Shown here piece after piece: positions 7,444 to 7,961 of a stretch of DNA of 37,579 nucleotides (position 1 is its first letter; each line of letters opens with the position of its first letter). The stretch comes from a virus (Duplodnaviria > Caudoviricetes), in IMG/VR virus record IMGVR_UViG_3300044513_000293, positions 1-37,579 of that record. One strand, given 5' to 3'. The notes below the pieces were generated by a model that saw only the letters and a list, made by a program, of their open reading frames with translations, did no database searches and had not been told where the DNA came from. A program made the translations under genes and the position numbers.

Positions 7444-7472
7444 ATTGTATCAATAAAAAGAGGAGGTGTCAA
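7444..7472 (-). promoter_or_regulatory. Sigma70-type promoter for the Sm-like/gp43 operon, embedded in a terminator
   Basis: TTGACA (7472-7467), 17 nt spacer, TACAAT (7449-7444). Confidence 0.85.
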
Positions 7473-7496
7473 CTGGATTTGGCCAGTTACCTCCTC
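7455..7496 (-). terminator. Rho-independent terminator
   Basis: GAGGAGGT-AACTGG-ccaaat-CCAGTT-gac-ACCTCCTC followed by TTTTT. Confidence 0.85.
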
Positions 7497-7526
7497 GTAC
7501 AGCGTAGCGCCGACGATATTCAGTTC
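7455..7526 (-). ncRNA. Candidate late small RNA (~70 nt), or structured 3' UTR of hsp20
   Basis: TAAATA late motif at 7532-7527, then about 30 nt with no start codon, then a strong terminator. Confidence 0.45.
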
Positions 7527-7529
7527 TAT

Positions 7530-7961
7530 TTAGAACCAATCTTTACGTTGATGATGCTCTGGGACTATTTTCCCAAGTACGATCCGTAGAAGTCCGTCTT
7601 CAAATGTGACTTCCCTGATTTCTGTGTCGTCGGATAAAGTCCAGACTCGTTTAAAACTTCTTTGAGCCAGTCCCTTGTGGACAAAGGTTTTCTCCGACTC
7701 TGTATCCTCTTTTTGTCCTTCGACAAAAAGTTTTCCATGCTCTGTGAAAACATAGACCTCCTTCTTCTTAAATCCAGCTAATGCAATTTCTAGATGTGAT
7801 TCAACATTATTTACCTGAACAAGGTTATATGGGGGATAATTTGATGTAGTTTCATGAAGGGCAAACAGACGATCAAAGTATTCGTCCATGCCAATACTGT
7901 GCTTAGTGATCTTATCCATCAAGGCAGGAAGATCCGCAGCAGAATACCTCTGAATGTTCAT
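7530..7961 (-). CDS. hsp20: Small heat shock protein (Hsp20/IbpA family)
   Basis: NYPPYN, LEIALAGF, HKGLAQRSF, FEDGLLRI alpha-crystallin motifs; start MNIQRY at 7961 after AAGGAG. Confidence 0.95.
   Translation of the reverse strand: MNIQRYSAADLPALMDKITKHSIGMDEYFDRLFALHETTSNYPPYNLVQVNNVESHLEIALAGFKKKEVYVFTEHGKLFVEGQKEDTESEKTFVHKGLAQRSFKRVWTLSDDTEIREVTFEDGLLRIVLGKIVPEHHQRKDWF

Follow-up and report, generated by a model that had tools for sequence, protein, structure and literature searches.

Behind the stop codon of hsp20, a T4-like cyanophage fragment of 37,579 nucleotides (the window, i.e. the whole stretch of DNA analysed) carries a short intergenic stretch, and we were interested whether it encodes a small RNA and which molecule such an RNA would recognize. 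An earlier note had proposed a self-contained late unit whose product is antisense to host 5S rRNA. In the window, regA, hsp20, two small genes and the DNA polymerase gene are all found on the minus strand. Of 186 phage records matched by the hsp20 region, 182 are named Synechococcus, Prochlorococcus or cyanophage, and the best DNA matches to the window come from estuary metagenomes. Read on the minus strand, the element begins with TAAATA at the hsp20 stop and continues with five bases, G7521, the seed, a short insert, a hairpin and a U run (Table 1), all between position 7530 and the next gene. An Rfam search of the window led to 0 families and no tRNA match, and a search with the element (E up to 10) gave as its best result a miRNA model at 17 bits against a cut-off of 109.

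Table 1. Parts of the element in the window, its neighbour, and copies in two cultured phages
Feature	Position	Strand	Basis
T4-type (gp55) late promoter TAAATA	7527..7532	-	sequence
Predicted 67-nt small RNA, +1 = G7521	7455..7521	-	fixed spacing to TAAATA
Anti-5S seed, 17 nt	7504..7520	-	exact complement of C-type picocyanobacterial 5S rRNA
Small predicted hairpin, 3' half of seed on phage-specific insert	7497..7514	-	folding prediction only
Terminator hairpin with sequence-conserved apex	7460..7496	-	covariation of pairs
U run at predicted RNA end	7455..7459	-	sequence; present across family
Separate sigma-70-type promoter (TTGACA, 17 nt, TACAAT)	7444..7472	-	11/12 positions match
hsp20, upstream neighbour, outside the unit	7530..7958	-	phrog_432, E 8e-55
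Syn9 copy	NC_008296.2, 164123-164186		
S-PM2 copy	LN828717.1, 115415-115483		

The late motif was indeed found to overlap the end of hsp20, as had been noted, with its TAA doubling as the stop codon, and the 21-mer quoted as antisense lies where it had been placed, at 7523-7503. TAAATA agrees with the cyanomyovirus late consensus, reported as NATAAATA for S-PM2 and Syn9 (PMC2984593). Of 178 classed elements, 165 have their 5' motif beginning 6 nt past TAAATA regardless of its sequence class. As three unrelated 5' sequence classes share this spacing, a start at G7521 and an RNA of 67 nt are indicated for the window; the start suggested previously, near 7522, was corrected accordingly. Among 230 elements, 182 have a pyrimidine at position +5 and 200 a purine at position +6. 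When loci were anchored on the hairpin, TAAATA was present upstream in 112 of 120 and absent within 75 nt in 8 distinct rows. At the sequence level the arrangement is that of a T4-type late transcription unit, with (A)TAAATA at a fixed distance from a purine start.

The strong terminator described before proved to be a GC-rich hairpin followed by the U run (fold z = -3.7), which a simple terminator scan had not called because of a bulge. Seven of its nine consensus pairs vary on both sides, the number of such cells being reached in 0 of 500 shuffles, and the U-A and G-C pairs beneath the apical loop are invariant (62/62). Across the family the apex follows the consensus CUGGCA-AAAU-CCAG (CUGGCC in the window), with CUGGCA in 185 of 204 elements. 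Minor classes with other apices (CUGCCA, UGGUCA, CUGGCU) occur in L010, L037, L044, L073, L093 and L098 and, among cultured phages, in S-RSM4 (L1047), DSL-LC03 (L1049) and S-PRM1 (L1048); they are mostly without an overlapping sigma-70 site, and the U-G beneath the loop is unchanged. In the window, the sigma-70-type promoter overlaps the 3' arm of the terminator and is directed at the next gene, and a looser form of the pattern was detected in 55 of 77 relatives compared to 1 of 77 control stretches. Part of the conservation of the 3' arm is explained by its second use as a promoter, an explanation that does not extend to the seed. The cassette thereby combines a late gene with an early-type promoter. 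The two genes that follow (7420-7079 and 7107-6862, both on the minus strand) belong to the related families phrog_431 and phrog_483, resemble each other and are likely paralogues. On the other side, the hsp20 leader (8018-7956, minus strand), behind its own TAAATA, shows a weak match to the ROSE_3 RNA thermometer (24.8 bits, E 0.0084, cut-off 43), and the same layout of hairpin and ribosome site was observed in S-SRM01, DSL-LC03, P-SSM2 and P-RSM6. It is possible that this leader is a phage heat-shock thermometer, and its thermometer-like layout suggests ATG 7958 rather than 8012 as the hsp20 start.

For the RNA of the window, the predicted probability of being unpaired is 0.8-1.0 for nucleotides 1-7 and 0.0-0.1 for nucleotides 8-14, so the former are predicted to form a free toehold and the latter to be folded on the insert. 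In a set of 185 elements, the seed is predicted to be largely single-stranded. In RNA sequencing runs, covered as assembled contigs, at most 0.20 of the sequence words were present, and these mostly reflect hsp20 of relatives.

The proposed target rested on a stretch of host 5S rRNA quoted in the earlier note, which turned out to be real. A scan with this stretch led to 119 matches, one of them a 5S gene (L209; RF00001, 78.6 bits) from a genome family with CsoS2 in 5 of 5 tested members, i.e. alpha-carboxysome cyanobacteria. The host set comprised 105 usable 5S sequences after removal of 2 of 107 as mis-registered fragments. A 14-mer complementary to the seed, with one free position, matched 86 times in the 151 host-family genomes, 57 of which had a match. 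All 86 places are 5S genes (80 within called 5S coordinates and 6 contig-end 5S pieces inspected individually), and the reversed control pattern gave two matches. The 17-mer of the window is present without mismatch in three 5S genes each of the genomes G010, G099, G126 and G150, and when up to 2 mismatches were allowed in 5 genomes, 14 of 14 matches were 5S genes, 12 of them exact. These C-type 5S rRNAs are the best partners of the RNA, forming 17 Watson-Crick pairs with the seed and a flanking G-U pair at each end, contributed by G7521 and G7503. The marine G-type 5S is a poorer partner, with one G-G mismatch; the pairing proposed before had been about 17 of 18 positions, with two G-U pairs and one mismatch. 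The paired stretch covers the end of helix II, loop A, helix V and the loop E strand, which we take to correspond to about positions 63-81 in E. coli.

Co-folding of the window RNA with C-type 5S led to 19 contiguous pairs and a predicted gain of -11.5 kcal/mol. The first 30 nt paired better than any of 2000 dinucleotide shuffles (-39.4, with two weak extra helices contributing; the shuffles averaged -22.2), in line with the pairing claimed at the outset. When 214 elements were co-folded with their best host 5S, the mean gain was -13.8 kcal/mol compared to -6.1 for 74 shuffled 5S, of which 51 likewise gained at least 5 kcal/mol, and the predicted pairing of the 214 elements was concentrated on one 17-nt stretch of 5S. 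The hairpin apex was also considered as a second site, directed at helix I, and is not claimed as one here: CUGGCA complements the 5S 3' end, yet it pairs in only 14 of 214 co-folds, and the helix I site opposite is invariant among hosts, with minor element classes carrying other apices. Within the window, no second seed site beyond chance was detected.

Short seeds can pair with many mRNAs, and a host or phage mRNA might be the real target with the 5S match being incidental. This is hardly credible, as no non-5S match was found in the 151 genomes, nor at 2 mismatches in the 5 genomes, no site above chance occurs in the window, and seed variants follow 5S haplotypes (see below). The element has the features of a trans-acting small RNA at the level of its sequence, namely a non-coding stretch flanked by a promoter and a terminator of its own, a conserved seed predicted to be accessible, a target encoded elsewhere and compensatory change. 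The mRNA target usual for such RNAs was not observed, only 5S rRNA genes being matched. From these data, 5S rRNA is very probably the target of the predicted RNA.

As the seed pattern was easily recognized, we looked at its distribution. The promoter-plus-seed pattern occurs in an estimated 2,200 viral stretches, and 120 loci retrieved by the seed pattern share the same order of parts, except for the chance-looking L038 and a few with a rearranged hairpin. BLAST with the 86-nt element (E up to 10) matched 315 records, each at a single place, and 305 of these are named cyanophages. A covariance model detected a single copy in 10 of 20 whole genomes of cultured phages, which were hand-picked, several because of an existing match: S-SRM01, DSL-LC03, P-SSM7, S-PM2, S-PRM1, Bellamy, SynMITS9220M01, RB11-B, S-RSM4 and Syn9. 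P-SSM2, P-HM1, P-TIM68, S-SSM7, P-RSM6, S-SZBM1, S-CRM01, P-SSM4, S-CBWM1 and P-RSM4 were negative, so that the element is dispensable; it is absent from 6 of the 7 Prochlorococcus phages among the 20. Divergent copies were sought in the ten negative phages with a loose pattern, which matched at background level, and 7 inspected matches had no element anatomy; a weak BLAST match in S-SZBM1 is likewise not the element. The covariance model gave nothing among the 150 candidates scored in each of 5 host genomes. One generic pattern for analogous RNAs against non-cyanobacterial 5S behind TAAATA led to 66 matches, 0 of them with a terminator hairpin as judged by eye. Three viral contigs (L666, L702 and L779) carry a different conserved hairpin element led by TAAATA, outside the anti-5S family. 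Counts exclude 3 loci without parsable 5S and, in the variant scans, loci failing the hairpin filter plus 9 that passed it without family anatomy; a stricter element filter kept 206 of 230 and also removed 15 genuine elements with variant apices.

An hsp20-like end precedes the element in only 56 of 119 loci, and the association with hsp20 on which the earlier note relied is therefore incidental. In cultured phages the upstream gene can also be hli2 (S-PM2), psbA (S-PRM1) or an unnamed gene. These neighbours also bear on a cis element, in which the seed within the 3' end of the upstream mRNA would tether ribosomes via 5S. Calicivirus termination-reinitiation, which pairs with 18S, offers a parallel, and read-through from the late promoter of hsp20 itself would span the seed. 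With an own promoter at a fixed distance from the G start, unrelated upstream genes, and a terminator rather than a gene downstream, such a function is very improbable. By its anatomy and distribution, the element is a mobile, single-copy gene of T4-like cyanophages, with a late RNA of 60-80 nt as its predicted product.

If the RNA acts on 5S, seeds should vary with the hosts, as the earlier note had anticipated. At the free position, 92 of the 105 host sequences carry G and 13 carry C, accompanied by its own compensating change in helix V, and the 120 phage loci of the seed-pattern set carry G (66), C (38), T (16) or A (0). A search of the whole viral collection led to 0 matches for the A form, compared to about 2,200 for the family. 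Computed energies against G-type and C-type 5S, respectively, are -21.9 and -26.3 for G, -26.3 and -19.1 for C, -23.6 and -19.1 for U, and -19.1 and -19.1 for A; G pairs with both host types and A with neither, and this ranking of the four bases agrees with the phage counts. To avoid circularity, a second set of 120 loci was fetched by the hairpin alone. The seed was present in 118 of these, one of the remaining two having a shortened seed with an anti-loop-D extension and the other no seed. Opposite the first host G/A column, U occurs in 45 distinct elements, A in 1 and G in 0; the second such column is faced by 16 U, 1 A and 0 G, and a host C/A/U column by U (2) or A (4) and never by C. Non-consensus seed bases almost exclusively pair, by these comparisons, with a real host variant or by wobble.

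Linked changes were detected as well. In all 4 A forms, a second change makes the complement of host haplotype L276/L291 complete, compared to 22 of 202 others (Fisher p 2e-4, kinship uncorrected), and other variant seeds match the host 5S sequences L278, L287, L290 and L243/L254 and the small-genome haplotype L257/L258. A double variant predicted for haplotype L275/L878 was found as one genuine element (L1186) among 104 metagenome matches; in viral contigs, of which 2 of 64 parts were scanned, 0 of 121 matches were genuine, reflecting chance matches. In addition, 34 elements carry 5' extensions; 23 of these (21 script-tagged, 2 by eye) are complementary to helix IV/loop D, and the other 11 skip helix IV and complement the opposite strand of helix V. 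In long forms such as L345, L352, L378, L555, L560 and others, the complement spans helix IV and loop D with a length of at most about 25 nt; the 5' extensions of L352 and L378 seem able to fold a hairpin of their own.

Some counts point the other way. Since the elements are related by descent, the numbers exceed those of independent events, and C-to-U variants of the seed are also the commonest type of mutation. A direct tally of transitions in the unbiased set is weak, with 8 wobble-keeping changes in 400 sites against 4 pair-breaking ones in 600. G seeds (50/100) far exceed C-type host genomes (13/105), and seeds matching small-genome haplotypes are rare. S-PM2 is recorded on Synechococcus WH7803 and has a G seed. 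As the 5S of this host is presumably G-type, the pair requires tolerance of G-G, which is known by computation only. These counts loosen the prediction of hosts from seeds and give no alternative target.

Compensatory change also bears on a captured scrap of host 5S, or a DNA site kept for its promoters, as an origin that needs no RNA function. The plus strand reads as 17 nt of 5S and a real-looking sigma-70 promoter overlaps the hairpin, both in favour of such an origin. This explanation is, however, largely refuted and very unlikely, as the retention of the U form and the absence of the A form are explained by G-U pairing of a minus-strand RNA and not by DNA homology, and in some forms two stretches complementary to separate 5S strands, 25 nt distant from each other in the gene, are joined. 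A self-contained late unit directed against 5S, as first proposed, is supported by conservation, uniqueness of the target and compensatory change.

What pairing would do to 5S depends on its protein partners. bL25, which binds loop E of 5S in E. coli, was sought in 101 genomes of the host family (G001 family) and found in none, with the uL18 control found in 5 of 5; it was also not found in the control Synechococcus elongatus. Loop E would be uncovered in the hosts because bL25 is missing. We regard it as very likely that the gp55 polymerase makes the RNA late and that the RNA pairs with 5S in the cell. The unpaired AAUAU toehold may nucleate on loop E, and the duplex would then zip to 14-19 bp. 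All pairing lies on the arm of helix V and loop E, with which 5S is docked to 23S rRNA, and spares helix III and loops B-C, which suggests an undockable 5S particle as the product. With about even probability, given that the RNA is made and pairs, 5S or the uL5-uL18-5S particle would be unable to dock, new 50S subunits would no longer be finished, and nucleotides and phosphorus would be spared for phage DNA. The partners of 5S are uL5, uL18 and bL25, and when 5S is handled faultily, the peptidyl transferase centre of the 50S subunits is malformed (PMC7283268). As undocked 5S, whether free or bound by protein, is also the easiest substrate, a block of assembly was ranked first, and capture of undocked 5S with stalled 50S maturation is about as likely as not. 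Our confidence is not higher mainly because translation is argued to limit the development of S-PM2, and host ribosomal-protein genes are up in high light during infection (PMC5931967); a benefit from blocking ribosome supply sits badly with these findings.

The RNA might instead act on mature ribosomes, threading the bL25-free face of loop E, lifting the 5S arm and retuning the central protuberance, e.g. to counter stalling, hibernation or a defence that watches ribosomes; the conserved apical loop would then be exposed on the ribosome. The bulk of cellular 5S resides within ribosomes, the hosts lack bL25, and a seed at a free 5' end would make winding easier. Limitation of cyanophage yield by translation (PMC5931967) and binding of the phage protein phiKZ014 to 5S on translating 70S ribosomes (PMC10914614) are also in agreement. 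Some forms would pair on both strands of helix V or across loop D, and a duplex of 14-25 bp is structurally hard to combine with a docked arm. We regard action on mature ribosomes as the main alternative, ranked second and tentatively held.

Near-perfect duplexes of 14-25 bp could also mark 5S for destruction, with the duplex or a nuclease bound to the apical loop starting turnover and freeing nucleotides and phosphorus. The apex is conserved beyond the need for pairing and rarely pairs with 5S, as expected for a protein site. As no nuclease gene is linked to the element, its neighbours vary, and late timing would be ill-suited to supplying DNA replication, destruction is unlikely. Less probable still is counter-defence, in which the RNA shields 5S, or withdraws it, from a host anti-phage factor: the patchy distribution and mobility resemble those of accessory counter-defence genes, but we know of no 5S-directed defence in picocyanobacteria. 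Independent of the preferred block of assembly, the RNA family probably tracks host 5S through evolution, acting as an antisense inhibitor or modulator of the central protuberance that exploits the loss of bL25 in hosts which include the most abundant photosynthetic bacteria.

No phage RNA against 5S rRNA was found by literature searches or by term look-ups in PMC10665884, PMC10914614, PMC12197685, PMC2984593, PMC5931967, PMC9602691, PMC10690425, PMC2864571, PMC9964418 and bioRxiv 10.64898/2026.09.22.753630, and neither these nor Rfam contradict the earlier statement that no such element is described. The transcriptome paper of Syn9 (doi 10.1038/ismej.2015.210) or the supplements of PMC10690425, with 10,000 candidate viral RNAs, could list the RNA without a target. 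The element is real, widespread and apparently undescribed. If true, rRNA would join the target classes of small RNAs, and the element would provide a sequence-programmable probe of 5S, whose role in the ribosome itself is unsettled (PMC10914614, PMC7283268). As seeds follow the 5S type of the host, they may serve as a host-group marker for uncultured cyanophages, and as Syn9 and S-PM2, the two best-studied cyanomyoviruses, carry the element, existing infection systems and data permit immediate tests.

Among known systems, C/D and H/ACA guides and ribosome-associated non-coding RNAs pair with or bind rRNA; they are archaeal or eukaryotic, and cellular. No box motifs of such guides were seen by eye in the element alignment. 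A 5S rRNA gene or mimic was also rejected, with 0 RF00001 matches in the contig and the promoter and U run on the antisense strand. The Rfam cyanophage RNAs manA, wcaG, PhotoRC-II, glnA and abiF are likewise structured and intergenic, but do not match the element and are mostly cis-regulatory leaders (PMC2864571, PMC9964418). CfrI of S-PM2 is also a non-coding RNA of a T4-like cyanophage, of about 225 nt and cis-antisense to phage psbA and an endonuclease gene (PMC2984593, PMC9602691). The S-PM2 copy of the element is located apart from CfrI, behind hli2, and a cis-antisense identity was rejected, as the element is intergenic and has its target in the host genome, not opposite its own target gene. 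Trans-acting small RNAs of phages and prophages share the own promoter, 5' seed, intrinsic terminator and length of 60-80 nt, but target mRNAs or small RNAs by short, imperfect pairing, compared to 14-25 nearly perfect pairs with rRNA, a word absent from their review (PMC12197685). The nearest functional parallel is phiKZ014 of the Pseudomonas phage phiKZ, likewise a phage product directed at host 5S at the central protuberance; phiKZ014 is an early protein that clamps the 5S ends by charge, whereas the element is predicted to encode a late RNA acting on helix V and loop E (PMC10914614).
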